From positions 1,758,295 through 1,822,294 of the forward strand of contig OY279575.1 in assembly GCA_958267355.1 (NCBI GenBank): 64,000 nt of DNA. Direction: 5' to 3'. Within the stretch, counting starts at the first letter, position 1, and every line of letters starts with the position of its first letter. The DNA is from an uncultured Alphaproteobacteria bacterium. Its GTDB lineage: Bacteria; Pseudomonadota; Alphaproteobacteria; JALCBB01. The notes beneath the pieces were generated by a model. It saw nothing but the letters and a program-made list of their open reading frames with translations, did not search any database and was not told the DNA's origin. Positions 4,469 to 41,842 of the stretch are shown one piece after another. The translations under genes and the position numbers were made by a program.

Positions 4469-4474
4469 GACAAT

Positions 4475-12603: not shown

Positions 12604-12779
12604 CCGCACAGGTTCATCCGTCAGGTCGTGGGGTGTAGGTCGTAAGTTGTGGATTGTAACTTGTAATTCGCTAAACCGCCCAAGGCAAGTCAGCTAGTCG
12701 CAATCCGCCAAACCGCCCGATGCAAGTCAGCTAGCCGCACACCCCAAGTTGTAAGTCTAAAGTTGTAAGTCGTAACGAA

Positions 12780-17205: not shown

Positions 17206-17810
17206 TTTCTAAGCCGCAGAAAAATGGGTTGGGGTTAGTCTTTCTCTCACTGTTTAAGTTACGGCGGCTTACGCCGCCTAGTGCCGTGAAGCGGTGCGCT
17301 ACGCGCAAGACGCTTCACGGCGTCCGCTTCGCTCCGTTCGCTGACGCTCCACTCCGCTCGCGTTCGTGCCCTACGGGCACTCGGTGGGTCTTCATCTCCA
17401 TAACGGGAGCCAGTTAATCCCCCTACTCTAGGGAAATTGGCTCAATTAACCCGTTACTAAAACTATGGGGCGTGGCGGTTGGAGGAAGAAACAAGGCTTG
17501 GCACGAATGCCGCACCGCAAGGTGCCCGCTCCGCTCGCGTTCGTGCCCTACGGGCACTCGGTGGGTCTTCGTCTCCATAACGGGAGCCAGTTAATCCCCC
17601 TACTCTAGGGAAATTGGCTCAATTAGCCCTTCCATTGAAACTATGGGGCGTGGCGGTTGGAGGAAGCAACAAGGGCTGGCACGAATGCCGCACCGCAAGG
17701 TGCTTGGCACGAATGCCGCACCGCAAGGTGCTTGGCACGAATGCCGCACCGCAAGGTGCTCCCCCCGTAAGGTGCCCAGCATTGACGCTACATCGCAAGG
17801 CGGCTAGGAT
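17199..17810. mobile_element. Composite A/B repeat element: repeat A (17199-17250), hairpin block, then B modules including a ~190-bp internal tandem duplication and 3 x 28-bp TTGGCACGAATGCCGCACCGCAAGGTGC
   Basis: Direct comparison with 489-556, 2633-2800 and 53561-53935. The 16905..17417 ORF is a translation artefact (LISKPQKNGLGLVFLSLF recurs at each A copy). Confidence 0.5.
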
Positions 17811-17839
17811 ATAGGCCTGCGCAACAATTTTTCTTGTTA

Positions 17840-18125
17840 CGTGGGCGGAAGGGGAAAAAAGCCTTTTTCGCGAAGTGGGAAGGTGTATGCCAAACAGAAA
17901 CCCACCAACAAAACACACCAACCAAAACACACGAGCAAAAACACACCTGCAGAACACACCAACCAAACCCTACCCGCAAAAACCTACCCGCAAAAACACA
18001 CGAGCAAAAACGCACCCGCGAAAGCACCAGTAAAAACGCACTGCAGAAAAACACCAGCGGAAATGCATCTGTAAAAAATTCTGGCAAAAACGCACCAGCA
18101 GAAACGCAGCTGTAAAACACAGAAG
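17840..18125. repeat. A/C-rich low-complexity repeat tract (AAAAACRCAC-like units, ~280 bp) immediately upstream of the DUF1013 gene
   Basis: Direct reading. Essentially no G+T on the top strand. Confidence 0.7.
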
Positions 18126-18180
18126 CAAAAGCGCGTAGGTGAAAGTGTCAGTGCACATCACACCATCAGGAGAAATCGCT

Positions 18181-19134
18181 ATGGCTCGTCCGCGTAAGAC
18201 ACCCCCTAAGGAATATCCGTTGATGCCGCGCGCCACCGCCGTCTGGCTCGTCGAAAATACCGCCCTAACCTTCGGACAAATCTCCGACTTCTGCGGACTC
18301 CATCCGCTCGAAGTACAGGGCATCGCCGACGGCGAAGTCGCCATCGGCGTGCGCGGCGCAGACCCCATCGCCAACCATCAGCTCACACGAGCCGAAATCA
18401 CTCTCGGTGAAGAAGACTCCGCGCACGAACTGCATCTTGCTGAGCGAAGAGTTTCAGCTCCGAACCGTAAAACAATCGGACCGCGCTACACCCCCATATC
18501 AAAACGACAAGACAAACCAGACGCAATCGTTTGGCTACTACGCAATCATCCAGACCTGAAAGACGCACAGATCGCTCGACTCATCGGCACCACAAAAAAT
18601 ACCATCCAAGCCATTCGCGACCGCCGCCATTGGAATAGCGCCAATCTGCGTCCGCGTGACCCCGTGCTGATGGAGCTTTGCACTTCCGAAAACCTGTCGC
18701 ACGAAGCCGAACGCGCCAAACGTGCCCGCGAGCGCGCCGAAAAACGCGCCGCCAAAGAAGCCAAGATTAAAGGTATCGCCACAACTTCCGAAGTCGCGGA
18801 TAAGGCGGCGGGCGATGCTGTGGGTATTTCCGCAGGGGTGGCTACGGAGTCGGCGGCTATAAGTTCAAGTGCGGCTATGGAGTTTTCTCTCGCCACAGCG
18901 GCAGAAGCAGCTTTTACGCCAACAACAACGGCAGAAACTACGCCAACAGGAGAAGATATGTCTGCAAAGACTCCGCAAGCGGAAAGCCCGCAGGAAGAAC
19001 AGAAAAGCCAAGCCCCCGATGACGCTTCTGCCGACTCTTCTGCTAACGCTTCTGCTGACTCTTCTGCTTCTGAAACTACGCCCGAAGATGACTCTCCCTT
19101 CGCCGCCTTGCGGGGGTTTAAGCTAGACTCCTAA
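18181..19134 (+). CDS. DUF1013 family protein (alphaproteobacteria-specific; start at Met15 of ORF 18139..19134, preceded by AGGAG)
   Basis: MARPRKTPPKEYPLMPRATAVWLVENTALTFGQISDFCGLHPLEVQGIADGEVA signature. Acidic/Ser-rich C-terminal tail contains tandem repeats. Confidence 0.65.
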   Translation: MARPRKTPPKEYPLMPRATAVWLVENTALTFGQISDFCGLHPLEVQGIADGEVAIGVRGADPIANHQLTRAEITLGEEDSAHELHLAERRVSAPNRKTIGPRYTPISKRQDKPDAIVWLLRNHPDLKDAQIARLIGTTKNTIQAIRDRRHWNSANLRPRDPVLMELCTSENLSHEAERAKRARERAEKRAAKEAKIKGIATTSEVADKAAGDAVGISAGVATESAAISSSAAMEFSLATAAEAAFTPTTTAETTPTGEDMSAKTPQAESPQEEQKSQAPDDASADSSANASADSSASETTPEDDSPFAALRGFKLDS

Positions 19135-20306: not shown

Positions 20307-21394
20307 TCATCGGCTCCGGGTAAATAGAGCAAGGCACCGAACCAACGCCAGACTCCGCCGCCCAGAGGAAGAGTGCAGTTCAAGCGTGAGCGGCTGAGTG
20401 GCAAAGGCTCGTTGCGTAAAACTTTAATTGTGCGGTCTGTTTGTTCGGTCGCGATAGTGTTTCCGCCTAGATAACAGGTCAAGCCGCTCAAGCTGCCCGC
20501 CGCTTCGTCAATTGTCATTTCAATCGGCGGCGGCGGATTCTGCTTCAAGAATGGATCGCTCGGCGTGAAGTGGGTGACTCCCATGGGTTGGCTTTTGAGT
20601 GCCAAGTTTAAACGGCTGACGCTGGTGTGGGTTCCTGACATCGCGTAGCGGGTCAGGGCAAAGCGATTGCTTTTTGTCCAGACAGGGCCAGAGTGTTGGG
20701 CAAAAGCCGCCCGAAACCCCGCCGCCCGAATTTCTTGCTCGTACGGCTCGCTGTATTCGCCGTAGGGATAGGTATAGAGACGCGGCACTGCACCCAGCTC
20801 ACGCCGCCATACCTTGTTCGCCTGTTCTAAATCAGAAGCACGGGCGGAGACGGAGTAATTGACTAGGTGTCCGTGGTCGTGGCTGTGGTGGGCTAGGGTG
20901 ACAAGCGGGTCTGCCGCCATCTCGCGGACTTCCTGCCAAGTCATATAGCCGCCCAGCTTTTGTTCTAGCGGCTCGGTGGCGATGGCTAGGGTGAAAGGAA
21001 AACCATACGCACGAAAACGTTTCCACGCCACTTCGTAGGTAGAGCGGTATGCATCATCTATCGTAATCACAACCGCTCGCTCAGGAAGTGTAGCCTTGCC
21101 CTCTAGAGCGTCTATCAAGTCTGCGGCAGGGATAACATTCCAGTTGTTGTCGCGCAGTTCGGCTAAGTGGGCTTCAAAGTCAGCCAGCGGCGTATTGGTT
21201 GAAGGAATATGGTCTTCGCCAAAACGATGATAGACCAACACAGTCGCCAGCTTTTGAATTTCGCTCGCTTGTGCCGCCTGTATGGTGGGCGGTGGGCTTG
21301 GTAGGATTCCTATCGCCACAAGCCCTGCCGAAATCAGCAGAGCGAGCGGCACAAGGGCTAGACCACGCCAGCGGTTTATAGGCGAAGGTTTCAT
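20303..21394 (-). CDS. Polysaccharide deacetylase (NodB-homology) family protein with signal peptide (ORF extends to 21484 through a repeat-encoded N-terminal extension)
   Basis: VLVYHRFGED..ITIDDAYRSTYEVAW..HSHDHGHL motifs. Signal-like MKPSPINRWRGLALVPLALLISAGLVAIG. Confidence 0.65.
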   Translation of the reverse strand: MKPSPINRWRGLALVPLALLISAGLVAIGILPSPPPTIQAAQASEIQKLATVLVYHRFGEDHIPSTNTPLADFEAHLAELRDNNWNVIPAADLIDALEGKATLPERAVVITIDDAYRSTYEVAWKRFRAYGFPFTLAIATEPLEQKLGGYMTWQEVREMAADPLVTLAHHSHDHGHLVNYSVSARASDLEQANKVWRRELGAVPRLYTYPYGEYSEPYEQEIRAAGFRAAFAQHSGPVWTKSNRFALTRYAMSGTHTSVSRLNLALKSQPMGVTHFTPSDPFLKQNPPPPIEMTIDEAAGSLSGLTCYLGGNTIATEQTDRTIKVLRNEPLPLSRSRLNCTLPLGGGVWRWFGALLYLPGADD

Positions 21395-21488
21395 AGTCCT
21401 GTGTTTTATAGGCCTATGTTTTATAGGCCTATGTTTTATAGCCCAGGGTTTTATAGCCCAGCGGTTTATAGGTGAAGGTTTCATAGTC
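21369..21488. repeat. Tandem 16-bp repeats (TGTTTTATAGGCCTA-like) bounded by a ~30-bp direct duplication (CAGCGGTTTATAGGYGAAGGTTTCATAGTC at both ends)
   Basis: Direct reading. Translates in frame as KHRPIKHRPIKHR at the deacetylase N-terminus. Confidence 0.7.
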
Positions 21489-21555
21489 TAAATATACCAC
21501 TCAAATTGAGAGAGGAAAATTAAGCAGTGAAATTAAAAGGCGGAAATTAACAGGG

Positions 21556-21728
21556 AGAAAATTGGCAGGGCAAAAAACTGATAGGGTAAAAAACTGATAG
21601 GGCAAAAAAACTGATAGGGCGAAAAACTGACAGGGTAAAAAATTGATAGGGCAAAAATTGACAGGGCAAAAATTGACAGGGTAAAAAACTGATAGGGCAA
21701 AAATTGACAGGATGAAAATTGACAGGGC
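21556..21728. repeat. Intergenic minisatellite, ~16-17-bp unit (CTGATAGGGYAAAAAA / TTGACAGGGCAAAAA) x ~11
   Basis: Direct reading. No spacer-like unique segments. Confidence 0.85.
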
Positions 21729-21798: not shown

Positions 21799-22458
21799 AT
21801 GATGGACTCTGCTTCCAAGCCAGCAACTTCTAAGCCAGCAACTTCTAAGCCAGAAACGCACAAGCCAGCGGCTCTTAATCAAGAGGGCTTAAATCTGCTC
21901 TTCCACGCAGGGCGGACTTTCAAAAAGTGGCAAAGCAAACCTGTGCCACAAAGTCTGCTGGAACAGGTGTGGGAACACGCGGCTTTGCCTCCGACAAGTT
22001 TTAATAGCGCGCCGATGCGGGTGGTCTTTGTTGTTTCAGACCAAGCCAAGGCAAGGCTGATTCCGCACTTGATGGAAGGCAATGTGCCACAGGTGCAAGC
22101 CGCTCCTGTGACCGCAATCATCGCCCACGACAACGAGTTTCATCAGCAGTTCAGCAAGCTGTCGCCGCATTATGATCCGTCAGGGTTTTTCGCGGGCGAT
22201 GAGAAAACAGAATTCCGCCACCAAACCGCTTTCCGCAATGGCACACTGCAAGGCGGGTATTTTATTCTCGCCGCTCGTGCCTTCGGGCTAGATTGCGGGC
22301 CCATGTCAGGCTTTAACAATCAAGGCGTAGATCAAGAATTCTTTGCTGGTACTTCGTATGCTTCTAACTTTCTGTGCAACCTTGGCTACGGCGATGATGC
22401 AGGATTGCATCCACGCGCTCCACGCCTGACCTTCGCTGAAGGTGCGTCTGTGGTGTGA
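21799..22458 (+). CDS. Nitroreductase-family protein (RutE/YdjA-like NAD(P)H oxidoreductase)
   Basis: RTFKKWQSKPVPQSLLEQVWE..PTSFNSAPMRVVFV..GGYFILAARAFGLDCGPMSGF motifs. N-terminus carries an in-frame KPATSKPATSKPETHKPA repeat. Confidence 0.65.
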   Translation: MMDSASKPATSKPATSKPETHKPAALNQEGLNLLFHAGRTFKKWQSKPVPQSLLEQVWEHAALPPTSFNSAPMRVVFVVSDQAKARLIPHLMEGNVPQVQAAPVTAIIAHDNEFHQQFSKLSPHYDPSGFFAGDEKTEFRHQTAFRNGTLQGGYFILAARAFGLDCGPMSGFNNQGVDQEFFAGTSYASNFLCNLGYGDDAGLHPRAPRLTFAEGASVV

Positions 22459-22618
22459 AGCCACGATGTAAAGCTAGAGTGTAAAGCTAGGGTGTGAAGC
22501 CACGATGTAAAGCTAGGGTGTAAAGCTAGAGTGTAAAGCCACGGTGTTAAGCTAGGGTGTAAAGCTAGAGTGTTAAGCCACGATGTGAATCTAGAGTGTT
22601 AAGCTAGGGTGTGAAACC
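22453..22618. repeat. Tandem ~11-12-bp repeats (GGGTGTAAAGCTAGA / GTGTGAAGCCACGAT) starting at the nitroreductase stop codon
   Basis: Direct reading. Confidence 0.8.
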
Positions 22619-22697
22619 AAGGCGCACAGACAAAAGCCCCATCAAGTAAAACCCCATCAACTAAAGTTCAATCAAGCAAAGCTGAATTATTCGCCCC

Positions 22698-23567
22698 GTG
22701 CTTCCCATACTTGCCCTAGATAGCGCAGGGCAAACCTGTTCTGTCGCTCTTGCCTATCAAGACTCAGCGGGAGCTGAAAAACAGGCAGAACGACAGCTCG
22801 GCTCCACGCGCAACTTTGAAACCCAACTGGTGCCACTAGTACAGGAAGTTTGCACCGCAGCCAAGTTGCAGCCACAAGACTTGTCAGCGGTGGTTATTAC
22901 GCTCGGACCAGGAAGCTACACAGGTCAGCGTTTGGCTCTTTGTTTTGCCTCAGGCTTGCGTGTCGCTCTTGGCATACGCAGTTTGGGTTTTACCAGTACG
23001 CTACTTGCCGCTCGCACTGCCCAGCGTTTGCTCGTAGAACGCGGAGTCAAGCACGGGCAGATCGCTGTGCTTTTGGACTCACGGCGGGCAGAACCCTTCG
23101 CCCAGTGCTTTTACTTTCAAAAGATGGAGCAAGATACGAAGCAAGGTACGGGTCAAGGGATGAAGCAAAATACGGAGCAGGGTACGGAGCAAGATACGAA
23201 GCAAGGTACGGAGCAAAATACGAAGGGGTTAGAGGCAACGGGAGAAATCGTATCGCTGGCACAAGAAGATCTTGCCGCTTGGTTGCAAGAAGCTGAATCA
23301 ACTGCTGCACAAACCACAACAGGCGAGTCGCTTTTCGTTTGTGGTGATGCCTTAAGCGATGACAAGCTTGCGGCTCTGGTGGCTCAAGCTGTGCCTAAGG
23401 CAGAGATTTTGTCCGCCATTGGACGGGGCAGGGTGGCGGAGCTGGTGGAGCTAGCCCGCGAGGCTATGGGTCAGGCCACAGACGAGCCTGACAAGCCGCT
23501 CCAAGCCGCCTATGTGCGGGAGCCAGATATTTCAGCTCCACGCCGTTCGTTTCTGGAAGGCGTATAA
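22698..23567 (+). CDS. tsaB: tRNA threonylcarbamoyladenosine biosynthesis protein TsaB (YeaZ), GTG start, with ~30-aa repeat insert
   Basis: LALDSAGQTCSVALA..GPGSYTGQRLALCFASGLRVALGI. In-frame 12-bp repeats (QDTKQGTGQGMKQNTEQGTEQDTKQGTEQNTKG) at ~23132-23226. Confidence 0.75.
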   Translation: MLPILALDSAGQTCSVALAYQDSAGAEKQAERQLGSTRNFETQLVPLVQEVCTAAKLQPQDLSAVVITLGPGSYTGQRLALCFASGLRVALGIRSLGFTSTLLAARTAQRLLVERGVKHGQIAVLLDSRRAEPFAQCFYFQKMEQDTKQGTGQGMKQNTEQGTEQDTKQGTEQNTKGLEATGEIVSLAQEDLAAWLQEAESTAAQTTTGESLFVCGDALSDDKLAALVAQAVPKAEILSAIGRGRVAELVELAREAMGQATDEPDKPLQAAYVREPDISAPRRSFLEGV

Positions 23568-23619
23568 TGCCAGCGTGGGCGGAGGCTTGAAATATAAACG
23601 CGGCTCGGTAGGCGTTGAG

Positions 23620-24282
23620 ATGGAACAATTTCTCAGCAACTGCCGAAAACGCGGACTGCGGATTACTCCGCAACGAAGACAGGTAATTGAAACCTTGCTA
23701 GAAGCACAGGATCATCCCGATGCGGCAACTCTGCATCAGCGAGTCCGCCGCCGCAACCCTACGATTTCAGCCGCCACTGTCTATCGCACACTTAATCTTT
23801 TAGAAGAAGGAGGAATTTTAATCCGCCACGATTTTCAAACCAGTATGCAAAGAAACGCGCAGAGAAATATACAGAATAATATTGAGGGAAATATACAGAA
23901 AAATGTAAAAGGAAATGTAAAAGGAAATGTACAGAAAAGTGTACAGGGAAATGTACAGAAAAGCGTACAAGGAAATGTAAAAAGAAATATGCAAGGAAGT
24001 TCTTCCGCCCGCTACGAGTTAGCAGGCGAGCACCACGACCATTTGATTGACCTGCAAAATGACTCCGTGGTGGAGTTTTATGACGAAGAGCTAGAAGAAC
24101 TGCAAGTCCGTATCGCCGCCCGACTCGGATATCAGCTCGTCAATCACCAGATGATCCTGTACGGCATTCCGAAAAAAACCAGTAAAGCTAGTGCGCCAAG
24201 TCCAAGCCGCAAAACAGCTTCGCCAAAACCAGCAAAACCACAACCAGCAAAACCACGTAAGGGAAAAACAAGCCAAAGCTAG
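23620..24282 (+). CDS. fur: Fur-family transcriptional regulator (start at Met37 of ORF 23512..24282) with in-frame 12-bp repeat insert
   Basis: RGLRITPQRRQVIETLLEAQDHPDAATLHQRV..ISAATVYRTLNLLEEGGIL ... HHDHLIDLQNDSVVEF. The insert NIQNNIEGNIQKNVKGNVKGNVQKSVQGNVQKSVQGNVKRN sits between the DNA-binding and dimerisation domains. Confidence 0.75.
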   Translation: MEQFLSNCRKRGLRITPQRRQVIETLLEAQDHPDAATLHQRVRRRNPTISAATVYRTLNLLEEGGILIRHDFQTSMQRNAQRNIQNNIEGNIQKNVKGNVKGNVQKSVQGNVQKSVQGNVKRNMQGSSSARYELAGEHHDHLIDLQNDSVVEFYDEELEELQVRIAARLGYQLVNHQMILYGIPKKTSKASAPSPSRKTASPKPAKPQPAKPRKGKTSQS

Positions 24283-24335
24283 GAATTGCCGCTCCGCATA
24301 GCCCGTGGTATAAACGCATTACTCGCATACGCACT

Positions 24336-25835
24336 TTGACCTTGATCCGCACCTTTCACATTCGCACCTACGGGTGCCAGATGAACGAATACGACTCCGC
24401 GCGTATTGCTGACCTGCTGGTTGCGCGTGGAGCCGAGCCTGTGCCCACGCCCGACTCCGCCGACTTGGTGGTGCTGAATACTTGCCATATCCGCGAGAAG
24501 GCAGCGGAAAAAGTCTATTCAGAACTCGGTAGACTGGCACTTCTGCGTAAAGGAAATTCACGCCGCCCCTTGCTCGCAGTCGCAGGCTGTGTCGCCCAAG
24601 GCGAAGGCGAAGAAATCTTACGCCGCGCCCCGCAGGTAGATTTCGTAATTGGTCCGCAATCATTTCATCGCTTCAACGAACTGCTAGACGCAGAACTTGC
24701 AGACTCCACAGAAGCTAGCGAAGCCACAGAAGCTAGCGGAGCCACAGAAGTTACAGAAGCCACGCCAAGCACAAAAAACAAAAAACGCCGCAAAGAAACC
24801 CGCCCACGGCGTATGGCACTAGATTTTCCGCTTGAAAGTAAGTTTGATTTTCTCCCCGAAGAACATTTGCCCCGTGGCGTGTCTGCCTATCTTGCAGTCC
24901 AAGAAGGCTGCGATCGGCTGTGCAGCTTTTGTGTTGTCCCCTATACACGCGGGCCTGAGTTTTCACGGACTCCCGAAGAAGTCTTGGCTGAAGCAGACAG
25001 ATTGTTCGCCCAAGGGGTGCGCGAGCTAACGCTCTTAGGGCAGAATGTTAATGCCTACCAAGCCCAAGACGCACAAGGGCAGGAGTGGGATTTAGCACAG
25101 CTTTTAACAGCACTCCACGAGCGGGCTGACTGCTTGCGGCTGCGCTATACCACTTCGCATCCCTTGGCTTTGTCGGATTCCTTAATTGCCGCCCATAGAG
25201 ATTTGCCGAAGTTGGCTCCGTATCTGCACCTGCCCGTGCAGTCAGGAAGTGATAAAATTCTACACGCGATGAATCGCCGCCACACAATCGCCTACTACCA
25301 CGAACGAGTCGCAAGCCTGCGAGCCGCTCGCCCCGATATCGCCCTGTCTTCCGATTTCATCGTCGGCTTCCCTGGCGAGAGCGAACAGGACTTCGCCGCC
25401 ACCCTAGCCCTAGTCAATGATATTGGTTTCGCCCAAGCCTATGCGTTTAAGTATAGTCCGCGCCCTGGCACGCCCGCCGCAGAAATGGATGACCAAGTCC
25501 CCGAAGCCGTCAAGGAAGAGCGTTTGGCAGGATTGCTTCAACTCCTTGCCGCCCAGCAAGCCGCGTTCAATCACAAAAGCCAAGGAATGATCCAAGAAGT
25601 TCTGCTCGTAGAACGCGGCAAACACAAAGGGCAATGTAAGGGGCGAAGCCCGTGGATGCAGTCGGTGGTAGCGCAGATACCCGAAGAATGCTTGGGGCAG
25701 ATGGTGTCGCTGAAGATTGTGCGGTCAGCTCCGCGTAGTTTGGTCGGTGAGCCAGTTGCAGAGTCTAGGGCAGTAGGGGGTGCAGTAGATGGCGCAAGAA
25801 ATGGTGCAAGTAATGTGGGGGTAGCTTCACTGTGA
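24336..25835 (+). CDS. miaB: tRNA-2-methylthio-N6-dimethylallyladenosine synthase MiaB (with in-frame repeat insert)
   Basis: FHIRTYGCQMNEYDSARIADLL..VLNTCHIREKAAEKV..radical-SAM CxxxCxxC (CDRLCSFC). 15-bp repeats encode STEASEATEASGATEVTEAT. Confidence 0.9.
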   Translation: MTLIRTFHIRTYGCQMNEYDSARIADLLVARGAEPVPTPDSADLVVLNTCHIREKAAEKVYSELGRLALLRKGNSRRPLLAVAGCVAQGEGEEILRRAPQVDFVIGPQSFHRFNELLDAELADSTEASEATEASGATEVTEATPSTKNKKRRKETRPRRMALDFPLESKFDFLPEEHLPRGVSAYLAVQEGCDRLCSFCVVPYTRGPEFSRTPEEVLAEADRLFAQGVRELTLLGQNVNAYQAQDAQGQEWDLAQLLTALHERADCLRLRYTTSHPLALSDSLIAAHRDLPKLAPYLHLPVQSGSDKILHAMNRRHTIAYYHERVASLRAARPDIALSSDFIVGFPGESEQDFAATLALVNDIGFAQAYAFKYSPRPGTPAAEMDDQVPEAVKEERLAGLLQLLAAQQAAFNHKSQGMIQEVLLVERGKHKGQCKGRSPWMQSVVAQIPEECLGQMVSLKIVRSAPRSLVGEPVAESRAVGGAVDGARNGASNVGVASL

Positions 25836-27073
25836 ATTCAGGAGTGAATTCAGGAGCGAATGCAGGAGTGAGTGCAGGAGCGAGCGCAAGCGCAGGCGCA
25901 GAAGTGAGCGCAGAAGTGCGCCAAACCACTTTCAACTTACGCTTCGCCGACAATCAAGCCGCCGCTTTGCTTTTTGGTCCGCACGGAGACCACTTAACAC
26001 TCCTAGAACGATTGCTAGATGTGCGGATTGTCACCCGCGGCTCTGCACTCGCCGTTTCAGGCAAAGCCACACAAGCACATACCGCCCGCTCCATTTTGGA
26101 TGGCTTATACAAAAAGGCAGCAAATGGCTCTGCACTCAACGCCGATGACATTCGCGCCGCCGCCGCCTTCGCCACAGAAAACATTTCCGCCGCTAAAAGC
26201 ACAGAGACTAAAAGTACAGAAAGTGAAAACACAGAAAGCGAAAGCACAGAAAGCGTGTCCGTGGCAGGGGCAAGTAGTGAGCCAAGCACAGGGGCAGATA
26301 CAGGGGCAGGGGTAAGCACGGGGGTAGGCACAGGGGCAGGGGTAAGCACAGGGGCAAGTACAAGCACAGAGATAAGCACAGAGATAAGCACAGGGGCAGG
26401 CAGACGCGCCTTGCCTTCCTTCGCCACACCCCGCCGCACAATCGCTCCGCGCACCCCAGGACAAGCCAAAGCCATGGAAGCCCTGCTCGCCCATTCAGTT
26501 GTCTTTCTGTCAGGTCCCGCAGGCACAGGCAAAACCTACCTAGCCGTCGCCGCCGCACTCGCCGCCCTAGCAGACGGAATCGTTGAACGAATTGTGCTCT
26601 GTCGTCCCGCCGTAGAAGCAGGCGAGCGACTCGGCTTTCTGCCAGGGGATCTGCGCGAGAAAGTAGACCCGTATTTGCGTCCGCTCTATGACGCACTGGG
26701 GGATATGACAGACGGACAAACACTTCGCCGCCGCTTGGAGCAAGGCACGATTGAAGTGGCTCCGCTCGCCTTTCTGCGCGGACGCAACTTAGCCCGCGCC
26801 TTTATCATCCTAGACGAAGCCCAAAACACCACGCCCGTGCAAATGAAAATGTTCCTAACCCGACTCGGCGACGCAAGCCGCTTAGTCGCCACAGGCGATC
26901 CATCGCAGGTAGACCTGCCCGCCGACCAAGAGTCAGGCTTCGCCGACGCTTGGCAACGTTTCGCCCACGCCCGCTGGCTCGGTGCCATAGCCCTACACGA
27001 AGAAGATGCAGTACGGAATCCGCTCATCGCAGAAATCTTGCGCGGCTATCGCCGCAACAAACAAGAAACATAA
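25832..27073 (+). CDS. ybeZ: PhoH-family protein (YbeZ) with two repeat inserts in the N-terminal region
   Basis: LSGPAGTGKTYLAVAAA..LCRPAVEAGERLGFLPGDL..ILDEAQNTTPVQMKMFLTRLG. Ser/Thr/Gly repeat blocks at ~25840-25920 and ~26200-26400. Confidence 0.85.
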   Translation: MNSGVNSGANAGVSAGASASAGAEVSAEVRQTTFNLRFADNQAAALLFGPHGDHLTLLERLLDVRIVTRGSALAVSGKATQAHTARSILDGLYKKAANGSALNADDIRAAAAFATENISAAKSTETKSTESENTESESTESVSVAGASSEPSTGADTGAGVSTGVGTGAGVSTGASTSTEISTEISTGAGRRALPSFATPRRTIAPRTPGQAKAMEALLAHSVVFLSGPAGTGKTYLAVAAALAALADGIVERIVLCRPAVEAGERLGFLPGDLREKVDPYLRPLYDALGDMTDGQTLRRRLEQGTIEVAPLAFLRGRNLARAFIILDEAQNTTPVQMKMFLTRLGDASRLVATGDPSQVDLPADQESGFADAWQRFAHARWLGAIALHEEDAVRNPLIAEILRGYRRNKQET

Positions 27074-27869
27074 CCCGAAGAGTCACAATCAGCAGGAGTC
27101 GCAGTCAAAAGTGAAAGTGCAAACCGAAATACGCATTTCTGCTCCTTCGTGGTATCGCTTGGGAAAGGATTTGCATCCGCTGATCCAGCGTTCCGTAGAA
27201 GCCGCTGTCGCGGTTGTGCCTGACTCCGTGCAACGCCACGGCACACGGCAAGGGCAAGGGCAAGTTCAAGGGCAAGGGCAAGGAAAAGTTCAAGGACAAG
27301 TTCGCGGACAAGGACAAGGGAAAGTTCAAGGGCAAGTTCGCGGGCAAGGGCAAGGGCAAGGGCAAGTTCGCGGACAAGGGCAGGAGATGCAGATCGTGTC
27401 GGTCGCAGTCTTGTTAGCAGGTAAGCAAAAACTCCGCGCGTTGAATCGCACTTTTTGCAATCAAGACAAAACCACAGATGTCTTAGCCTTTCCCGCCGAT
27501 CCCGCAGTCGCCGCCTTCGCCCACAAAGAACAAACCCTGCCGCTCGGCGATCTAGCAATCGGCTGGGAACCATGCCTAGCATCAGCAACAGCGTTCGCCG
27601 CCACGCCACGCCAACAACTACAGCATCTAATCATTCACGGCACTTTGCATCTGCTCGGACTCAACCACAAAACCGATTCGCAAACCCGTAGAATGCGTAG
27701 CCTAGAGTCAGCCGCGTTGCAGTCTTTGGCTGTCCCTGACCCGTGGCGGGGGCTAGATACGGCACGGGGTACGGCACAGGGTAAGGCACGGGGTAAGGCA
27801 CAGGGCAAGCCACGGGCAAGGACAAGGCGCAAAAAAGCAAATCTACCGCCCGCCCAATCTGCCGCCTAA
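27006..27869 (+). CDS. ybeY: rRNA maturation endoribonuclease YbeY (real start probably ~27100) with Q/G-rich repeat inserted inside the domain and a repeat-encoded C-terminal tail
   Basis: ..TDVLAFPAD.. and H..IHGTLHLLGLNH zinc motif. Repeat QGQGQVQGQGQGKVQGQVRGQ.. (~27250-27385) lies between the first and second conserved segments. Second repeat at ~27763-27830. Confidence 0.8.
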   Translation: MQYGIRSSQKSCAAIAATNKKHNPKSHNQQESQSKVKVQTEIRISAPSWYRLGKDLHPLIQRSVEAAVAVVPDSVQRHGTRQGQGQVQGQGQGKVQGQVRGQGQGKVQGQVRGQGQGQGQVRGQGQEMQIVSVAVLLAGKQKLRALNRTFCNQDKTTDVLAFPADPAVAAFAHKEQTLPLGDLAIGWEPCLASATAFAATPRQQLQHLIIHGTLHLLGLNHKTDSQTRRMRSLESAALQSLAVPDPWRGLDTARGTAQGKARGKAQGKPRARTRRKKANLPPAQSAA

Positions 27870-27919
27870 AAATCCGCTTCGTGCTACACTAACCACACTT
27901 CGCTTGAGGAACCAATAGT

Positions 27920-29056
27920 ATGCAGTCCCTTACAAGTGCTTCCGATACAATGCGCCAAGCAGACGACTCTGCATCCGCGCTTGGAGGCGAAGACCCAGAG
28001 CCACCATCTAGGCTCAACCAACTTCAGCCCAACGAGACTAGGCACAGTGAGTCTAGCAATGGCGAGTCTAGCAGCAGTGAGTCTAGCAATAGTGAGTCTG
28101 GCAATAGGGAGTCTAAGCCCAATACGACTCCGTTAAGTGTGGCAAAAACACAAGCGCACGAAACAGCACACAAAAAAGCACACAAAAAATCACGCCGTAA
28201 AAACCCAAGAAAAAAGATACTGCGCGTACTGCATTTCTTCACCCGCTCAGAAAAACAAATATTACGCCGCTCGCTACTCTCGGTGCTGGAACATCTCCCC
28301 GCCGATACCAATATGCAAGCCCTAAAAGATACCGAACGCGCAATCTTAGAAAATCTTCTACGCCACCGCGACCGTGCCGTTGAAGACCATATGGTACCCC
28401 GCTCGGAAATCTTCGCACTTCCCGCATCAGCAAGCCGCGCCGAAGCCCTGAAAAATATGCGCTCGGCGGGCCACTCACGCGCACCCGTCTATGAAGAGTC
28501 GCTGGATAACACCAAAGGCTATCTGCATCTCAAAGATCTAATCGGACTCGGCGAAGCCAATGACAAAGACCACGGAGAAGACTCCATTCGCCAACTTCTG
28601 CGGCAGGTTATCTTTACCTCTCCCGCTATCAATAATCTAGACCTGCTACGCCAAATGCGTATGCGCCGCACACACCTAGCCCTTATCGTTGACGAACACG
28701 GCGGCGTAGATGGACTCGTCACCATAGAAGACTTAATAGAAGAATTCTTCGGCGAAATAGAAGACGAACACGATGTTAAAAGCAATCCGCCAAAATTACA
28801 GAAACGCGCTGATGGTGCAGTTTCCGTAGATGCACGATTCAGGCTAGAAGACTTGCCTGCGGATATGTACCAAGAACTCCGTGCCGATGCGGAAGAAGAA
28901 AACATAGACACAGTTGGCGGCTTCGCCGCTTGGGTCGCAGGCTATGTTCCAAAACAAGGCGAAACACTCACGCACCAAGCCAGCGGCTTGCGCTTCTACA
29001 TCAACGCCGCTGGACGCCGCCGCGTAACCCACTTGTCAATCGCTCCGCCGCAGTAG
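27920..29056 (+). CDS. corC: CorC/HlyC-family CBS-domain Mg/Co efflux-associated protein (YbeX) with N-terminal SESSN repeat
   Basis: DHMVPRSEIFALPA..CBS pair..IVDEHGGVDGLVTIEDLIEEFFGEIEDEHD..transporter-associated C-terminal domain. Confidence 0.85.
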   Translation: MQSLTSASDTMRQADDSASALGGEDPEPPSRLNQLQPNETRHSESSNGESSSSESSNSESGNRESKPNTTPLSVAKTQAHETAHKKAHKKSRRKNPRKKILRVLHFFTRSEKQILRRSLLSVLEHLPADTNMQALKDTERAILENLLRHRDRAVEDHMVPRSEIFALPASASRAEALKNMRSAGHSRAPVYEESLDNTKGYLHLKDLIGLGEANDKDHGEDSIRQLLRQVIFTSPAINNLDLLRQMRMRRTHLALIVDEHGGVDGLVTIEDLIEEFFGEIEDEHDVKSNPPKLQKRADGAVSVDARFRLEDLPADMYQELRADAEEENIDTVGGFAAWVAGYVPKQGETLTHQASGLRFYINAAGRRRVTHLSIAPPQ

Positions 29057-29074
29057 CGGAGTTGCGCGGCTCCC

Positions 29075-30829
29075 GTGCGTCTGCCACAAGGCTTAACCCA
29101 AGGCCTAAAGGGGTTTGCTGGCGCGTTGGTGACTCCCTTTCGGCGGCGGATGGATATTTCGTTCAAACAAGGCTTGGCAGTCGCTCCGCTGTGGGGCGGA
29201 CTTGCCGCACTTGCCCTGCCACCGCTCTACCTGCTGCCGCTCGGTTTGCTCGGACTCGCCGCTTGGTTTCGTCTGGTCGCTTGGGCAACTTGTCCGCGCC
29301 ACGCCTTCTGCTTGGGCGGGCTTTTCGCCTTCGGCTATTTTCTCGGCGGCTTGTGGTGGATCGCCTTCGCCTTTCAGTATGAGTCAGGTCTTTTGGCGTG
29401 GGCGGGGTTTCCGTTGGTTGTGCTTTTGGCTGCGGGCTTGTCGCTTTTCTGGGCAGTCGCTTCAGCTGGCGCACGATTTGCCCGTCAAGGCGTGGCGCGG
29501 GTCTTGCTTTTTACAGCGGCAGTTCTAGCGGCGGAGTTGGCACGGAGTTTTGTGTTGGGGGGATTTCCGTGGAATCCGATTGCGTCTTTTTGGGCTGGCT
29601 CGGCAGTGACTTTGCAGCCCCTAGCACTTTTCGGCTCTGACCTATGGAGCGCACTTACAGTTTTCGCCTGTGCCGCCGCTGTGAGTCTGGTCTATGACGG
29701 TAAAGCGGGAAGTGCAGGGGAAGTTGCAGGGAAAGGTGAAGTTGCAGGTAAAGGCGAAGGGGAAGTTGAAAGTGAAATTGAAAGTAAAGGGGAAAAGGAA
29801 AGCGCAAGGGTTCGGGTGGAGCGGTATAGCTCCATCGCGGTTTTGGTTCTAGCTGTTGTCCTGCCGCCTGCTACGCTTCTAATCAGTGGAGCGCAAGTAG
29901 CAGTCGCGCCACCAGCCCAAGAAGTTGCGGGCGTGCGCTTGCGGCTTGTCCAGCCCGCCATCGCCCAAGAAGACAAGTGGAAACGCGCCCAACGCCGCAA
30001 AAACCTAAACCTGCAATACCAACTTCTCACCACAGCAGGAAACTTCACCCACGCCATCCTGCCCGAAGCCACAGTCGCTTGGCCGCTCAACACTGCCGCA
30101 ACCGTGCGCTCGCTTTTGACTTCTGCACTTCCGCAAGAGGGGAGTTTAATCATCGGCGGAATTACACGCCTGAATCACCAACAAGCAGAAGCCGTACCAA
30201 GGCTACATAATTCGCTTTATGTTTTAGACAGCACAGGTGCCATATCAGCACGATACGATAAGCATAGGCTTGTGCCGTTCGGTGAGTTTATTCCGTTCAG
30301 TCGTTGGCTTCCTGCCACACGCCTAACCAACGCCGAAGGAGTCATTGATTACACGCCTGGCGATGGTTTGCGTACGCTTGTCGCTTCTTCGGGTGCTTCG
30401 GGTGCGCGGGTTTCTGTGCCGCCGTTTTCTCCGTTGATTTGTTTTGAAGTGCTTTTTTCAGGACGAGTCGTTCAGCACGGCACAGCCCGCGCCAGTTGGC
30501 TTGTCAATCTAACCAACGATGCATGGTTCGGACAGACTTCAGGTCCATATCAGCACTTCGCCGCCGCCCGTATGCGAGCCGTTGAAGAAGGCTTGCCGCT
30601 CGTGCGCTCCGCCAATAACGGAATTTCTGCCGTTATAGATGGGCGCGGACGAATTCAAAGCCTTTTGCCTCTCGGAGCCCGTGGCGTTTTAGACGCAAAC
30701 TTGCCACAGGCTTTGCCTCCGACGGGGTTTGCGCGGTTTGGCTTGCGCCTGCCGCTCGTAGCCTTGGCTTTTTTTGCTGTGGCGTTTCTAATCGCGCAAT
30801 TGGCTCCGCCTGTTCTGCGCCGCCCATAA
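29075..30829 (+). CDS. lnt: Apolipoprotein N-acyltransferase Lnt (with in-frame GEVAGKGEV.. repeat between TM region and CN-hydrolase domain)
   Basis: Multi-TM N-terminus. LRLVQPAIAQEDKW..YDKHRLVPFGEFIP..LICFEVLF..NLTNDAWFG motifs. Confidence 0.9.
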   Translation: MRLPQGLTQGLKGFAGALVTPFRRRMDISFKQGLAVAPLWGGLAALALPPLYLLPLGLLGLAAWFRLVAWATCPRHAFCLGGLFAFGYFLGGLWWIAFAFQYESGLLAWAGFPLVVLLAAGLSLFWAVASAGARFARQGVARVLLFTAAVLAAELARSFVLGGFPWNPIASFWAGSAVTLQPLALFGSDLWSALTVFACAAAVSLVYDGKAGSAGEVAGKGEVAGKGEGEVESEIESKGEKESARVRVERYSSIAVLVLAVVLPPATLLISGAQVAVAPPAQEVAGVRLRLVQPAIAQEDKWKRAQRRKNLNLQYQLLTTAGNFTHAILPEATVAWPLNTAATVRSLLTSALPQEGSLIIGGITRLNHQQAEAVPRLHNSLYVLDSTGAISARYDKHRLVPFGEFIPFSRWLPATRLTNAEGVIDYTPGDGLRTLVASSGASGARVSVPPFSPLICFEVLFSGRVVQHGTARASWLVNLTNDAWFGQTSGPYQHFAAARMRAVEEGLPLVRSANNGISAVIDGRGRIQSLLPLGARGVLDANLPQALPPTGFARFGLRLPLVALAFFAVAFLIAQLAPPVLRRP

Positions 30830-30995
30830 ATCGCTATCCTTACAAAAGGACACAAAACCAGATACGCCTGTTAACAAAAAACCATACAGATTTCAAAGAA
30901 ACTACACAAAGAAATTTGCTCATACCATCATCGCTCGGCTATAATCAAACCAATCGCGTAACATCTAGGCACTACGCAAAACAACTCACTTAGAG

Positions 30996-31817
30996 TTGAA
31001 AACAAAATCAATAGCAAACCCTATCAGCGAATCCATCGCTACACGATCCACGATTAACAAAACTCGCCGCCACGAGTCATCTTTCACTTTTGAAAACGTA
31101 AGCCCGTCCGTTGCAACAACAATAGCGGACACTTCTTTTCATTCCAACGCAGGAGGAGCCAAAATGCCACAGGGAAGGCGCAGGTTGGACACAAACCGCA
31201 AACCAAAAACCGCTAAACTCACCGCCAAACAAGCCGCGAAGCAACGCGCATCCACACCCGTAGACAAAGTCGTCGGAACCTGTGTGCGCGAACGGCGGAT
31301 TGTCCTTGGTTGGAGCCAAGAAGAACTCGCGGAAAAACTTAAAATCTCGTTCCAGCAAGTACAGAAATACGAAGCTGGCACTAACCGCATCGGCGCAAGT
31401 CGGCTCTACCAAATCGCCCGCGTCTTAGACACGGATGTAAACCACTTCTACGGCACCTTGCCAATGCCCGCCCAAGCAACAGGGGGGAAGAAAACAAGCC
31501 AGCGAGTCGCTCCCGAGCTGCGTGAGGTGGCGAATCCGATCACCCCAACACCGAAGGGCAAGGCACAACAAAACAAAGGACAACAACGCGCCGCTCTAGC
31601 CTTAGTACGGCACTACTATAAGATTCAAAGTCCGAGTGTGCGCCGTGGATTGGTGCAGACTGTCCATGCCTTTTCTGACCAACAGGGCAAAGCTTCCGCC
31701 ACCAAAAAGGGAGCTAAGAAAAGCACGAAAAAAACGGCTAAGAAATCCGCCAAGAAGACTACAAAAAAAGCGGCGAAGAAATCCGCGCGCAAAAAGACCA
31801 CGCGCAAAAGGCGGTAA
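30996..31817 (+). CDS. XRE-family helix-turn-helix transcriptional regulator with histone-H1-like Lys/Ala-rich C-terminal tail (start may be the Met at ~31164)
   Basis: VRERRIVLGWSQEELAEKLKISFQQVQKYEAGTNRIGASRLYQIARVL HTH. Tail KKGAKKSTKKTAKKSAKKTTKKAAKKSARKKTTRKRR. Conserved position between lnt and metK. Confidence 0.7.
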   Translation: MKTKSIANPISESIATRSTINKTRRHESSFTFENVSPSVATTIADTSFHSNAGGAKMPQGRRRLDTNRKPKTAKLTAKQAAKQRASTPVDKVVGTCVRERRIVLGWSQEELAEKLKISFQQVQKYEAGTNRIGASRLYQIARVLDTDVNHFYGTLPMPAQATGGKKTSQRVAPELREVANPITPTPKGKAQQNKGQQRAALALVRHYYKIQSPSVRRGLVQTVHAFSDQQGKASATKKGAKKSTKKTAKKSAKKTTKKAAKKSARKKTTRKRR

Positions 31818-32130
31818 GGCGTAAAAGCGGTATGGGGTAAAAGTGGTACGGGTAAGCGGTATGGGGTAAAAGCGATTAGCCACAGAAGCCGTATAGGGCA
31901 AAAGCGGTACGGGCAAGCGTTAAGGCGTAAAAGCCGTATAGGGTAAAAGTGATTAAGGGCTAGAGAGGTAAGGCGTAAAAGCGGTTAGGGTAAGAGTGGT
32001 TAGCCACAAAAGCCGTATGGAGTAGCCACAAGGGCAAGAGTGGCACGGGCAAGCAGTAAGGCGTAAAAGCCGTTAGGGGCTAGATGGGTTAGCCACAGAA
32101 GCGGTTAGGGGCAAAAGCCGTAAAAAGCCA
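31815..32130. repeat. Degenerate tandem repeats (GGTAAAAGCGGTATGG / GGCGTAAAAGCCGTTAGGG units) over ~315 bp
   Basis: Direct reading. A further 14-bp repeat (GTATCTGTAAAGAT x5) lies at ~32419-32490 just upstream of metK. Confidence 0.75.
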
Positions 32131-34722: not shown

Positions 34723-35060
34723 GATACGGCTAACACGCCCCACAGAAGCCACAGGAGCTGTTTGTAGGGCTTTTATGGGGTGGAAAGCGGAATTGGCACA
34801 GATACGCCCCACAGAAGCCATAGGAGCTGTTTATGGGGCTTTTATGGGGTGGAAAGCGGAATTGGCACAGATACGCCCCACAGGAGCCATAGGAGCTGTT
34901 TAGGGGGCTTTTATGGGGTGGAAAGCGGGATTAGGCACAGATACGCCCCACAGAAGCCATAGGAGCTGTTTAGGGGGCTTTTATGGGGTGGAAGCGGGAT
35001 TTGCCACAGATACGCCCCACAGAAGCCATAGGAGCCGTTTAGGGGGCTTCTAGGGGAAAT
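34723..35060. repeat. 69-70-bp minisatellite x5 (GATACGCCCCACAGAAGCCATAGGAGCTGTTTAGGGGGCTTTTATGGGGTGGAAAGCGGAATTGGCACA), bounded by GGGCTTCTAGGGG direct repeats
   Basis: Period measured from recurring GATACGCCCC (34801, 34870, 34940, 35009 approx). Confidence 0.85.
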
Positions 35061-35078: not shown

Positions 35079-35885
35079 ATGCGACTACCACGCACCACAG
35101 AAGCCCAGTTTTCTTCTCGCAGGACAACAGAAGGGCTCAGGGCAACAGAAGAACAAGGAGAGCAATGGCTCGCACAGGATTCTTGTGTCCATCTGCGGCT
35201 GGTCTGTGAGCCCGCTATGCGGCAGGTGGCAGAGTCAGCAGCGCAACTCGCCGAGTCAGCCGCTTCAGCCTTAGGCTTCGCACTTGTGCGACTCCAACTC
35301 ACAGGCGGACGCAAACCCCGCCTACAAGTGCTCGCCGAACGCCCTGACGGCAGCTTTTCGCTAGACGATTGCGCAACCCTGTCACGGAAACTCTCCACCC
35401 AGCTAGATGCCCAAGACGAAGCTGGCAATGCGTCTGGCAAGGCAATTCAAAGTGCTTATGTTTTAGAAGTTTCGTCTCCGGGAATGGAACGCCCATTAAC
35501 TCGTCCGCAAGATTTCACCGCCTACGCGGGTCGCTTGGTGCATCTACGCCTAAATCGCTTTGCGCCACAAAAACGCAAAAAATATCTCGGCACTTTAATC
35601 GGAGTTGAAGGAATCGGACTCGAAGGAAACGGACCCGAAGGCGAAAATCTTATCCTTCAAATCCAAGAAGACGAAACCACGCTCAAAATTCCACTCGCGC
35701 AAATCGCAGAAGTACATTTGCATCTGGCTTCGCCAAGACAGACAAAAACCCAAACAAAAACACACGGCAAAGCAAAAGCCAAAAACACCAAAGGGAAAAA
35801 CAAAAAATCTTCCCTACTTGCAAACCTGTCGTCTAAACCAATAGCTCCACACCACAACAGCAAAACCAACAGAGTTGCCCCATGA
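35079..35885 (+). CDS. rimP: Ribosome maturation factor RimP (start probably ~35215) with basic repeat-rich C-terminal tail
   Basis: ALGFALVRLQLTGGRKPRLQVLAERPDG..YVLEVSSPGMERPL. Confidence 0.8.
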   Translation: MRLPRTTEAQFSSRRTTEGLRATEEQGEQWLAQDSCVHLRLVCEPAMRQVAESAAQLAESAASALGFALVRLQLTGGRKPRLQVLAERPDGSFSLDDCATLSRKLSTQLDAQDEAGNASGKAIQSAYVLEVSSPGMERPLTRPQDFTAYAGRLVHLRLNRFAPQKRKKYLGTLIGVEGIGLEGNGPEGENLILQIQEDETTLKIPLAQIAEVHLHLASPRQTKTQTKTHGKAKAKNTKGKNKKSSLLANLSSKPIAPHHNSKTNRVAP

Positions 35886-41777: not shown

Positions 41778-41842
41778 AGGTGCAGGTGAAGATAGCAGGT
41801 GAAGGTGCAAGCGAAGGCGCAAGCGCAGATGCAGGCGAGCGA
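41704..41842. repeat. Tandem 12-15-bp repeats (GGTGAAGGTGCAGGTGAAGATAGCA) spanning the rbfA 3' end and the rbfA-truB junction
   Basis: Direct reading. Confidence 0.75.

Follow-up and report, generated by a model that had tools for sequence, protein, structure and literature searches.

In-frame tandem repeats in housekeeping genes of an uncultured alphaproteobacterial sponge symbiont with minisatellite-rich intergenic DNA

To our knowledge, bacterial genomes are normally almost free of minisatellites, and their conserved housekeeping proteins rarely accept insertions. The alphaproteobacterial lineage described here departs from both. The material is a 64-kb stretch of DNA (64,000 nucleotides of contig OY279575.1, hereafter the window), in which short tandem repeat arrays occupy much of the intergenic sequence and also lie in frame inside housekeeping genes. 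The genes at positions 22698–31817 are the best examples; Pfam confirms that they encode TsaB, a Fur-family regulator, MiaB, PhoH, YbeY, CorC, Lnt and an HTH_3 regulator. Their order (TsaB–Fur–MiaB–PhoH–YbeY–CorC–Lnt–HTH) is conserved in Kiloniella, Azospirillum and many metagenome-assembled genomes.

Several described systems share features with these arrays. Rickettsia palindromic elements (RPEs) belong to one defined palindromic family whose copies, about 100–150 bp long, are dispersed. Like RPEs, the arrays put additional DNA in frame into essential genes of a symbiotic alphaproteobacterium, at sites where the protein structure allows it; unlike RPEs, they are tandem and have no sequence common to them. 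Contingency loci, known from Haemophilus, Neisseria and Mycoplasma and including the variable number tandem repeats of M. tuberculosis, have units that shift the reading frame or lie in the promoters of specific surface or virulence genes. Slippage-driven copy-number change between close strains is common to both cases, but the arrays within genes described here never break the frame and sit indiscriminately in housekeeping genes. Contingency (phase-variation) loci were considered and are ruled out: coding arrays of at least 40 bp all have periods divisible by 3, and the indels within genes are all multiples of 3.

At the protein level, the closest analogue is found in Plasmodium falciparum, whose housekeeping proteins carry hydrophilic, repetitive and length-polymorphic inserts between conserved blocks; these are attributed to replication slippage and are tolerated by looping out of the fold. 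Context is given in PMC3140889. The inserts of the window are likewise hydrophilic, length-polymorphic and flanked by conserved blocks. Plasmodium, however, is an extremely AT-rich eukaryote with Asn/Lys inserts, whereas the window belongs to a bacterium of 54% GC, with inserts rich in G, S, A, E, T, K and Q and built of 12- and 15-bp units.

The closest bacterial precedent is Ehrlichia ruminantium, where Tandem Repeats Finder (TRF) with default settings gives 6.3% repeat, compared with 0.38% in E. coli, and the mean repeat period is about 139 bp (PMC3287509). The process that generates these repeats is described as directed at non-coding regions (Collins et al. 2005 and Frutos et al. 2006, as summarised in PMC10710844). 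Both organisms are host-associated alphaproteobacteria with small genomes and several percent of tandem repeat (8.0% in the window with default TRF settings). In both, arrays expand and contract between strains and are biased towards intergenic DNA, with 41% of intergenic bases covered here against 5.3% of coding bases. The units here are about ten times smaller (6–18 bp in genes, a median of 14 bp in spacers), about half of the genes, housekeeping ones included, have in-frame arrays, and the lineage is unrelated, with 54% GC and a place in order GM7ARS4, not Rickettsiales. Low-complexity regions of prokaryotic proteins have been described as originating widely, and transiently, from the multiplication of short repeats, which can also affect ancestral functions (Persi et al. 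2023, PMC10120016). The pattern described there is a statistical one seen over many genomes; here, one extreme lineage is concerned, in which intergenic DNA is dominated by repeats and about half of the genes are affected. The window combines, in a new lineage, a repeat load like that of E. ruminantium with protein inserts like those of Plasmodium, the units being much shorter than in E. ruminantium.

The window comes from a symbiont of the sponge Halisarca caerulea with a reduced, circular genome of 1.86 Mb, assembled from PacBio HiFi reads and assigned to GTDB order GM7ARS4. A circular metagenome bin of this order from H. caerulea has been described, with a HiFi coverage of 23× and a CheckM completeness of 87.75% (PMC12391866). 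GM7ARS4 is the type genome of ‘Candidatus Methylospongiales’, sponge-specific alphaproteobacteria that have genomes of 1.6–1.8 Mb and a type III secretion system (PMC7313196). Tandem repeats go unmentioned for GM7ARS4 in these two papers on the lineage (PMC12391866, PMC7313196). A model's reading of the window from its letters alone (the sequence-only reading) had reported the in-frame arrays and called the region free-living-looking, which the source contradicts; its comparison with the repeat-expanded proteomes of host-associated bacteria was literally apt, the source being itself a symbiont.

The analysis covered the window, which is about 3.5% of the genome, and loci of about 21 kb in its relatives. 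TRF returned 229 rows at a score of at least 30, and these were merged into arrays at a score of at least 40. The gene model combines public gene calls with Pfam and comprises 53 genes. The reference set consisted of the loci of at least 8 kb among 80 syntenic alphaproteobacterial loci (1.34 Mb in total), treated with TRF settings identical to those used for the window. Relatives were metagenome contigs reached via a protein database; the best MiaB match among GTDB species representatives is only 54–57% identical. Of the haplotypes in the same sponge sample, at least three in number, three strains were compared over 21 kb of shared sequence, namely the window, L083 (a 1.87-Mb circular contig) and L082 (a 374-kb alternate contig). 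The other relatives are a sister species from the same sponge (L085, a 1.84-Mb circular contig) and, more distant, L088, also from the same sponge, L086 from another sample, and L087, an Illumina sponge metagenome contig.

The window contains 81–83 arrays (TRF score of at least 40), which amount to 6817 bp, or 10.7% of its length. Mononucleotide shuffles of the window gave 0–65 bp of arrays (about 0.1%), and the reference loci have a repeat content of 0.70% when pooled, with a median of 0.44% and a maximum of 3.4%. By the gene model, arrays take up 41% of the intergenic sequence and 5.3% of the coding sequence. They are present in 20 of the 30 spacers of at least 50 bp, and arrays that reach 30 bp or more occur in 28 of the 53 genes. 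The longest array has 415 bp.

Coding and intergenic arrays differ in their relation to the reading frame. Among arrays of at least 40 bp, the period is divisible by 3 in 26 of 26 coding arrays but in 9 of 27 intergenic ones (Fisher p ~ 1e-7); the latter figure equals the chance expectation of one-third. Unit sizes in genes range from 6 to 18 bp and are dominated by 12 bp (14 arrays) and 15 bp (14 arrays), so that the 12–15 bp given in the sequence-only reading describes the commonest sizes and not the whole range. The median intergenic period is 14 bp, and 63% of the intergenic periods are within 9–17 bp; 12 and 15 bp are the multiples of 3 that flank this median. It looks as if coding and intergenic arrays are products of one process with a preferred unit of about 12–16 bp, of which only the neighbouring multiples of 3 are kept in genes. 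The encoded peptides are distinct as well: hydrophobic residues make up 7% of the coding repeat peptides, compared with about 30% of the window proteins (minus-strand open reading frames (ORFs) at 62953–63997 were excluded from the peptide statistics). In the intergenic arrays, 70% of frames have stops, and the stop-free frames would encode 38% hydrophobic residues.

The three co-resident haplotypes are 98.5% identical outside the arrays (21 kb). L083 and L082 each show about 40 indels relative to the window per 21 kb, nearly all of them within arrays, and 25 of 30 arrays are polymorphic in length across the three haplotypes (15 of 20 coding arrays and 10 of 10 intergenic ones). The length differences in coding arrays are 12–120 bp; all are multiples of 3 and most are exact multiples of the unit, while those in intergenic arrays include 1, 13, 16, 26, 33 and 49 bp. 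A rough inference, good to an order of magnitude, is that the rate of length change per array is about 100 times the substitution rate per site. Owing to the copy-number differences, protein length varies among strains only in repeat-bearing genes, and S21, COQ9, MetK, TrmB, NusA and YlxR have a constant length in all three strains. Examples of variable lengths are:

TsaB: 289, 317 and 277 aa in the three strains
YbeY: 252, 270 and 250 aa
Lnt: 584, 593 and 593 aa
IF2: 938, 952 and 932 aa

The sister species, with MiaB 76% and MetK 89% identical to those of the window, has a repeat content of 13% and a largely different set of arrays. It is devoid of the Fur wing insert and of the PhoH, CorC and Lnt arrays, while its TrmB contains a 165-bp array that is missing from the window. 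At the TsaB and MiaB sites, which carry arrays in both species, the units differ. The repeat content is 6.9% in L087 (MiaB 68% identical), 3.3% in L088 (MetK 75% identical) and 2.1% in L086 (MiaB 67% identical); in L088, YbeY (152 aa) and TsaB (205 aa) are of canonical length. Across the relatives, the repeat load forms a gradient from 2–3% through 7% to 11–14%. The lower repeat content of the more distant relatives indicates that the trait has intensified along the lineage of the window.

Two further observations concern L088. Its NusA (17389–19053) is 94.6% identical to the NusA of the window (35882–37558), while its MetK (75%), COQ9 (69%) and Lnt (66%) are far more diverged; this could reflect gene exchange between symbionts within one sponge or unusually strong conservation. 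At 7497–9834 of the same contig, MiaB and PhoH are split into short ORFs (a 288-aa ORF plus fragments, and a 156-aa piece of PhoH). These may be pseudogenes or errors of a low-coverage linear contig.

The inserts were delimited by aligning each protein with up to 15 syntenic orthologues. The inserts so defined coincide exactly with the arrays, and their flanks are conserved blocks. The arrays at positions 22698–31817 are as follows:

23118–23225, plus strand: internal array of TsaB, called by TRF; 12-bp unit AGCAAGATACGA, encoding repeats of the (T/K)(E/Q)Q(G/D/N) type
23860–23998, plus strand: wing array of Fur; 12-bp unit, NVQG/KGNV-type repeats, forming most of a 53-aa insert
24223–24256, plus strand: array of the C-terminal tail of Fur, called by TRF; PAKPQ repeats, 9/15 bp
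24706–24763, plus strand: linker array of MiaB; 18-bp unit, TEASEA repeats, between the UPF0004 and radical-SAM domains
25789–25815, plus strand: C-terminal array of MiaB, called by TRF; 12 bp
25832–25918, plus strand: N-terminal array of PhoH, called by TRF; 12 bp, VNSG/ASAG repeats, spanning the MiaB stop codon
26196–26255, plus strand: internal array 1 of PhoH, called by TRF; 15 bp, STE(S/T)K repeats, on the N-terminal side of the ATPase domain
26284–26400, plus strand: internal array 2 of PhoH, called by TRF; 12/30 bp, STGAG repeats, an insert relative to orthologues
27247–27382, plus strand: internal array of YbeY; 6/18/36 bp, QGQG(K/Q)V repeats, part of a loop insert of 52 aa in the single catalytic domain
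27761–27816, plus strand: array of the C-terminal tail of YbeY, called by TRF; 12 bp, (A/G)(Q/R)GK repeats
28033–28115, plus strand: N-terminal array of CorC, called by TRF; 15 bp, SESSN repeats, an insert relative to orthologues
28152–28193, plus strand: second N-terminal array of CorC, called by TRF; 12 bp, AHKK repeats
29707–29785, plus strand: internal array of Lnt; 12/18 bp, GEVAGK/GEVESE repeats, between the N-terminal membrane and CN-hydrolase domains
31707–31814, plus strand: Lys-rich C-terminal tail of the HTH_3 regulator; about eight copies of (A/T)KK(S/T) with a decayed 12/24-bp periodicity

TsaB has inserts of 10 and 26 aa relative to its orthologues. Its array site measures 120, 204 and 84 bp in the three strains, and the same site in the sister species has an array with a 15-bp unit. 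The insert of Fur is located, by alignment, between residues 76 and 77 of M. gryphiswaldense Fur (4RAY), a position that we take, from Fur structures, to be the turn of the wing hairpin in the winged-helix DNA-binding domain. This insert is missing from the sister species and the outgroups. AlphaFold2 (AF2) models of Fur and YbeY were computed from alignments of homologues taken from databases. The model of Fur has a confident core, with a target-normalised TM-score of 0.84 against Mur (5FD6), and the insert, with a predicted local distance difference test (pLDDT) score of 60–78, is placed between wing strands 66–69 and 130–133. The tail of Fur extends 22 aa beyond orthologues; it is 15 bp longer in one strain, and the sister species has a different, longer array there.

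YbeY is a single-domain protein, and its insert relative to orthologues comprises residues 72–123; the site is 148, 82 and 70 bp long in the three strains. AF2 predicts this insert as a coil (pLDDT 51–57) between helix 21–35 and strand 94–103. The core, including the His motif, has pLDDT above 90 and target-normalised TM-scores of 0.76–0.83 against the YbeY proteins of E. coli, S. aureus and A. aeolicus. The C-terminal tail (30 aa beyond orthologues) has low pLDDT, and its array measures 68, 188 and 140 bp in the three strains. According to these models, the YbeY and Fur inserts are predicted to loop out without disturbing the fold.

In the multidomain proteins, the arrays lie between domains or at the ends. 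The Pfam domains of MiaB comprise residues 7–106 and 188–359, and the insert relative to orthologues comprises residues 122–161; the sister species has a longer, different array at this linker site. The C-terminal array of MiaB is 72 bp longer in both other strains. The N-terminal array of PhoH, part of which may lie upstream of the publicly called PhoH start at 25868, differs by 12–18 bp among strains. The inserts of PhoH relative to orthologues form several segments N-terminal to the ATPase domain, with the Pfam PhoH domain beginning at residue 204; internal array 1 is 15 bp longer in one strain, and internal array 2 differs by 12 and 30 bp among strains and is missing from the sister species, where PhoH has 356 aa. 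The N-terminal array of CorC differs by 15 and 30 bp among strains, and for this reason CorC has 378, 377 and 372 aa among the cluster members; the second array is 12 bp longer in both other strains. The 34-aa insert of Lnt (residues 215–248) lies between the Pfam domains at residues 41–200 and 291–545, and its array is 36 bp longer in both other strains and missing from the sister species. The tail of the HTH_3 regulator has an autocorrelation of 0.56 at a lag of 24 bp and is below the TRF threshold; it is missing from the outgroups, and its counterpart in the sister species is a clear array with a 12-bp period, 102 bp in length.

The claims of the sequence-only reading for these genes are largely borne out. 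TRF calls arrays in TsaB, Fur, MiaB, PhoH, YbeY, CorC and Lnt, and Pfam confirms the identities of these genes. PhoH has three arrays and not two. YbeY does have an insert within the catalytic domain between conserved segments and a C-terminal array, but its N-terminal extension is not a repeat. The repeat of the HTH regulator is real as a Lys-rich tail with 12/24-bp periodicity, although decayed and too weak for TRF. The placement of the inserts at termini and in inter-domain loops agrees with the orthologue alignments and the limits of the Pfam domains. The checks proposed with that reading, namely alignment with orthologues, codon-phase statistics of the units and copy number in strains, gave the exact match of inserts and arrays, the 26/26 against 9/27 split, and the 25 of 30 polymorphic arrays with in-gene differences all multiples of 3 that are described above.

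We consider that the arrays result from a high-rate, slippage-type process of tandem duplication and copy-number change acting across the DNA and filtered by selection in genes, with a probability of roughly 0.8. Short tandem duplications, with a preferred unit of about 12–16 bp, would arise and change copy number exceptionally fast everywhere. We infer slippage as the molecular event, which would consist of slipped-strand mispairing or unequal exchange between adjacent units. The duplication process would be blind to the reading frame. In intergenic DNA, arrays of any period would build up, to about 40% of the sequence at present. In genes, purifying selection would spare only stop-free arrays with units divisible by 3; the peptides of the spared arrays would be hydrophilic and flexible, with a high content of G, S, A, E, T, K and Q, and would be located at protein ends, in linkers between domains or in loops on the surface. 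Through this filter the conserved fold would survive, as the structural models of YbeY and Fur suggest, and the repeat-bearing proteins presumably remain functional. As a root cause, we consider a weakening of replication or repair and a relaxation of selection in a small population of symbionts, which may also act together.

Several points weigh against this explanation. The intergenic arrays are A-rich and T-poor on the plus strand, with a pooled AT skew of 0.36, compared with 0.13 for non-repeat spacers, and values of up to 0.84 (examples are the arrays at 4324–4468, 17893–18121, 43291–43430, 46667–46935 and 52605–52800). The plus-strand A-richness persists even in spacers with a minus-strand gene on either side. 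Such a skew is not expected from simple slippage; it hints at a strand-specific component and may be tied to the replication strand. The presence of the TsaB, MiaB and HTH-tail arrays in both sister species means that some arrays predate the species split, and many arrays are degenerate (65–90% unit identity), so that some may be old rather than recently active. The inserts are presumably translated, to judge solely from their maintained reading frames. To call the process genome-wide is to extrapolate from 64 kb and relative loci of about 21 kb, and as to the cause of the high rate there are candidates only.

One such candidate is a heritable replication or repair defect in the lineage, which would make it a natural ‘minisatellite mutator’. 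We regard this as possible, though on balance doubtful. The narrow unit size of about 12–16 bp and the A-rich, T-poor strand asymmetry of the intergenic arrays would fit it. The defect could lie in lagging-strand flap and primer processing (the 5′-nuclease of Pol I, RNase H) or in the set of single-strand exonucleases and helicases that normally suppress short tandem duplications. If a mutator does exist, the gradient of repeat load from 2–3% through 7% to 11–14% could allow the causal gene change to be mapped by comparative genomics.

Alternatively, the in-frame repeats could be adaptive, either as disordered linkers and tails selected for solubility, condensates or host interaction, or as contingency loci that tune function by copy number. 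Their peptides are strongly hydrophilic and stop-free, their copy number is hypervariable, some sites are reused in both sister species, and nucleic-acid binding is plausible for the Lys-rich tails of the HTH regulator, YbeY and Fur. However, non-coding DNA is about eight times denser in arrays (41% against 5.3%) of the same unit size class, so the generating process is not directed at genes. The carriers are unrelated cytosolic and membrane housekeeping proteins with no common function, the arrays of the same proteins differ or are missing between the sister species, and a purifying-selection filter explains the hydrophilicity without any benefit; an adaptive origin is accordingly unlikely. 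Less probable still, and very unlikely in our estimation, is that the low-complexity segments are ancient, conserved features of the clade with no ongoing process. Inserts do occupy the same positions in the sister species in TsaB, MiaB, the HTH tail and the C-termini of Fur and YbeY, and direct comparison of the consensus sequences shows a GCAAGAnAC core shared by the TsaB units of both species. Yet the sister species has neither the wing insert of Fur nor the arrays of PhoH, CorC and Lnt and carries arrays of its own (for example, in TrmB), the proteins of L088 and L086 are of canonical length (YbeY 152 aa, TsaB 205 aa), and strains only 1.5% diverged differ at 25 of 30 arrays.

The consensus units of 46 arrays, compared all against all in all rotations and on both strands, are no more alike than shuffled ones, and the only pair sharing a unit consists of two adjacent intergenic arrays (31807–32003 and 32065–32118). 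The units of different arrays being unrelated, they do not point to a mobile element, and it is highly improbable that the inserts are copies of a dispersed selfish element of RPE type that were inserted in frame and then amplified locally. What speaks for such an element is a superficial likeness to RPEs in the form of in-frame insertions into housekeeping genes at permissive sites in a host-associated alphaproteobacterial genome. The units of 6–18 bp are nevertheless far below the length of any known mobile element, the indels are whole tandem units, and the window, its repeat-rich spacers included, contains neither an Rfam match nor a tRNA gene. Sequencing or assembly artefacts are scarcely credible as the source of the arrays or of their length differences, even though the data are a metagenome assembly and tandem repeats are a known source of assembly errors. 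The contigs are circular PacBio HiFi contigs of 23–27× coverage, and arrays of at most 415 bp are far below the read length; the same arrays occur in contigs of two assemblers and in three haplotypes, and arrays related to them are also present in another sample and in a sponge metagenome contig from Illumina data. In-gene differences are always multiples of 3 and intergenic ones are not, whereas an artefact would ignore the frame. Ancient conserved segments in close relatives and artefacts were the two objections raised with the sequence-only reading itself. The former fails because the array set of the sister species differs and L088 and L086 have almost none, the latter because arrays recur in independent HiFi contigs and in a short-read contig.

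Outside positions 22698–31817, arrays were confirmed in RimP, YlxR, IF2 (InfB), RbfA, COQ7, FabI, DUF1178, TrcR/DUF1013 and the nitroreductase, as the sequence-only reading had it. Pfam and public calls confirm the identities of these genes, and also those of the DedA/VTT protein, the CimA/LeuA-like synthase and the polysaccharide deacetylase. For the last three, the picture is less simple: the CimA array is present but minimal, and the arrays assigned to DedA and the deacetylase are real but probably upstream of the true start in the former case and mostly upstream of the called start in the latter. Representative arrays are listed below:

21368–21488: deacetylase array, most of it upstream of the public-call start at 21394
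21529–21727, no strand: intergenic minisatellite in the deacetylase/nitroreductase spacer, called by TRF; 14/16/46 bp, of the class with periods not divisible by 3
22452–22619, no strand: intergenic minisatellite upstream of tsaB, called by TRF; 13/39 bp
31807–32003, no strand: intergenic minisatellite downstream of the HTH gene, called by TRF; 16/45 bp, with a related 16-bp array at 32065–32118
37622–37756, plus strand: N-terminal array of YlxR, called by TRF; 15 bp, about nine copies of EK(H/Q)(S/G)(T/A), the Pfam YlxR domain comprising residues 68–136
48225–48284, minus strand: N-terminal array of COQ7, from TRF and Pfam; 12 bp, five copies of KTTS, T-poor on the coding strand
49556–49628, minus strand: ‘DedA’ array; 15 bp, hydrophobic TSLRF-type repeats with a T-rich coding strand, unlike every other coding array
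CimA array: minimal, 9 bp × 3.5

The intergenic arrays of this list vary strongly among strains: the array at 21529–21727 differs by 33 and 49 bp, that at 22452–22619 measures 180, 54 and 154 bp, and that at 31807–32003 differs by about 100 bp. The coding status of the deacetylase array is uncertain. The ‘DedA’ array lies about 55–80 residues upstream of the start of the Pfam VTT match (residue 109); it is probably intergenic, with the annotated start placed too far upstream.

The tail array of RbfA (41700–41835) runs through the stop codon, which sits within the repeat, into the spacer before TruB. Its period is 12 bp in the coding part, and a 25-bp duplication, not a multiple of 3, follows past the RbfA stop. 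The predicted start of TruB at 41799 is inside this array; the true one probably lies further downstream. The spacer upstream of rimP contains, at 34735–35056, the longest unit in the window (69 bp × 4.7, 93% identity); this array, of a size class apart from the 12–16-bp arrays, has about one unit fewer (72 bp) in one strain.

The segment 62953–63997 is repeat-dense and has long ORFs in both orientations. Those on the minus strand encode unusual hydrophobic repeats that look implausible, and the plus-strand ORF 63002–63571 encodes a Ser/Pro/Arg-rich protein with a C-terminal hydrophobic segment; neither this ORF nor those antisense to it have a Pfam match. The plus-strand ORF is at least as likely as the minus-strand ones to be the gene. 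At the other end of the window, a run of large plus-strand ORFs at 2908–10604, continuing to 14879, encodes products of 224, 241, 923, 628, 496, 604 and 699 aa with no Pfam domain. Sub-threshold matches to the prepilin N-terminal methylation motif PF07963 were found in the 923-, 628- and 496-aa ORFs (E 0.0009–0.004), and the 224-aa ORF has a sub-threshold match to PilS (E 0.004). The region 2908–14879 also has a strongly negative GC skew and a positive AT skew. The ORFs could form a cluster that encodes giant proteins of pilin-like or pseudopilin type.

The arrays have consequences for the study of these symbionts. Proteins become longer through the inserts and may score lower in profile-based searches; the circular genomes are only about 88% ‘complete’ (PMC12391866), a figure for which genome reduction could be an equally good explanation. 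The arrays also provide dozens of hypervariable markers that separate co-resident symbiont strains in one sponge. Relatives graded from 2% to 14% repeat are material for seeking the genetic cause of minisatellite proliferation, and the inserts in TsaB, YbeY, Fur, Lnt, IF2 and FabI form a natural map of the tolerance of essential proteins to insertions of 10–50 residues.

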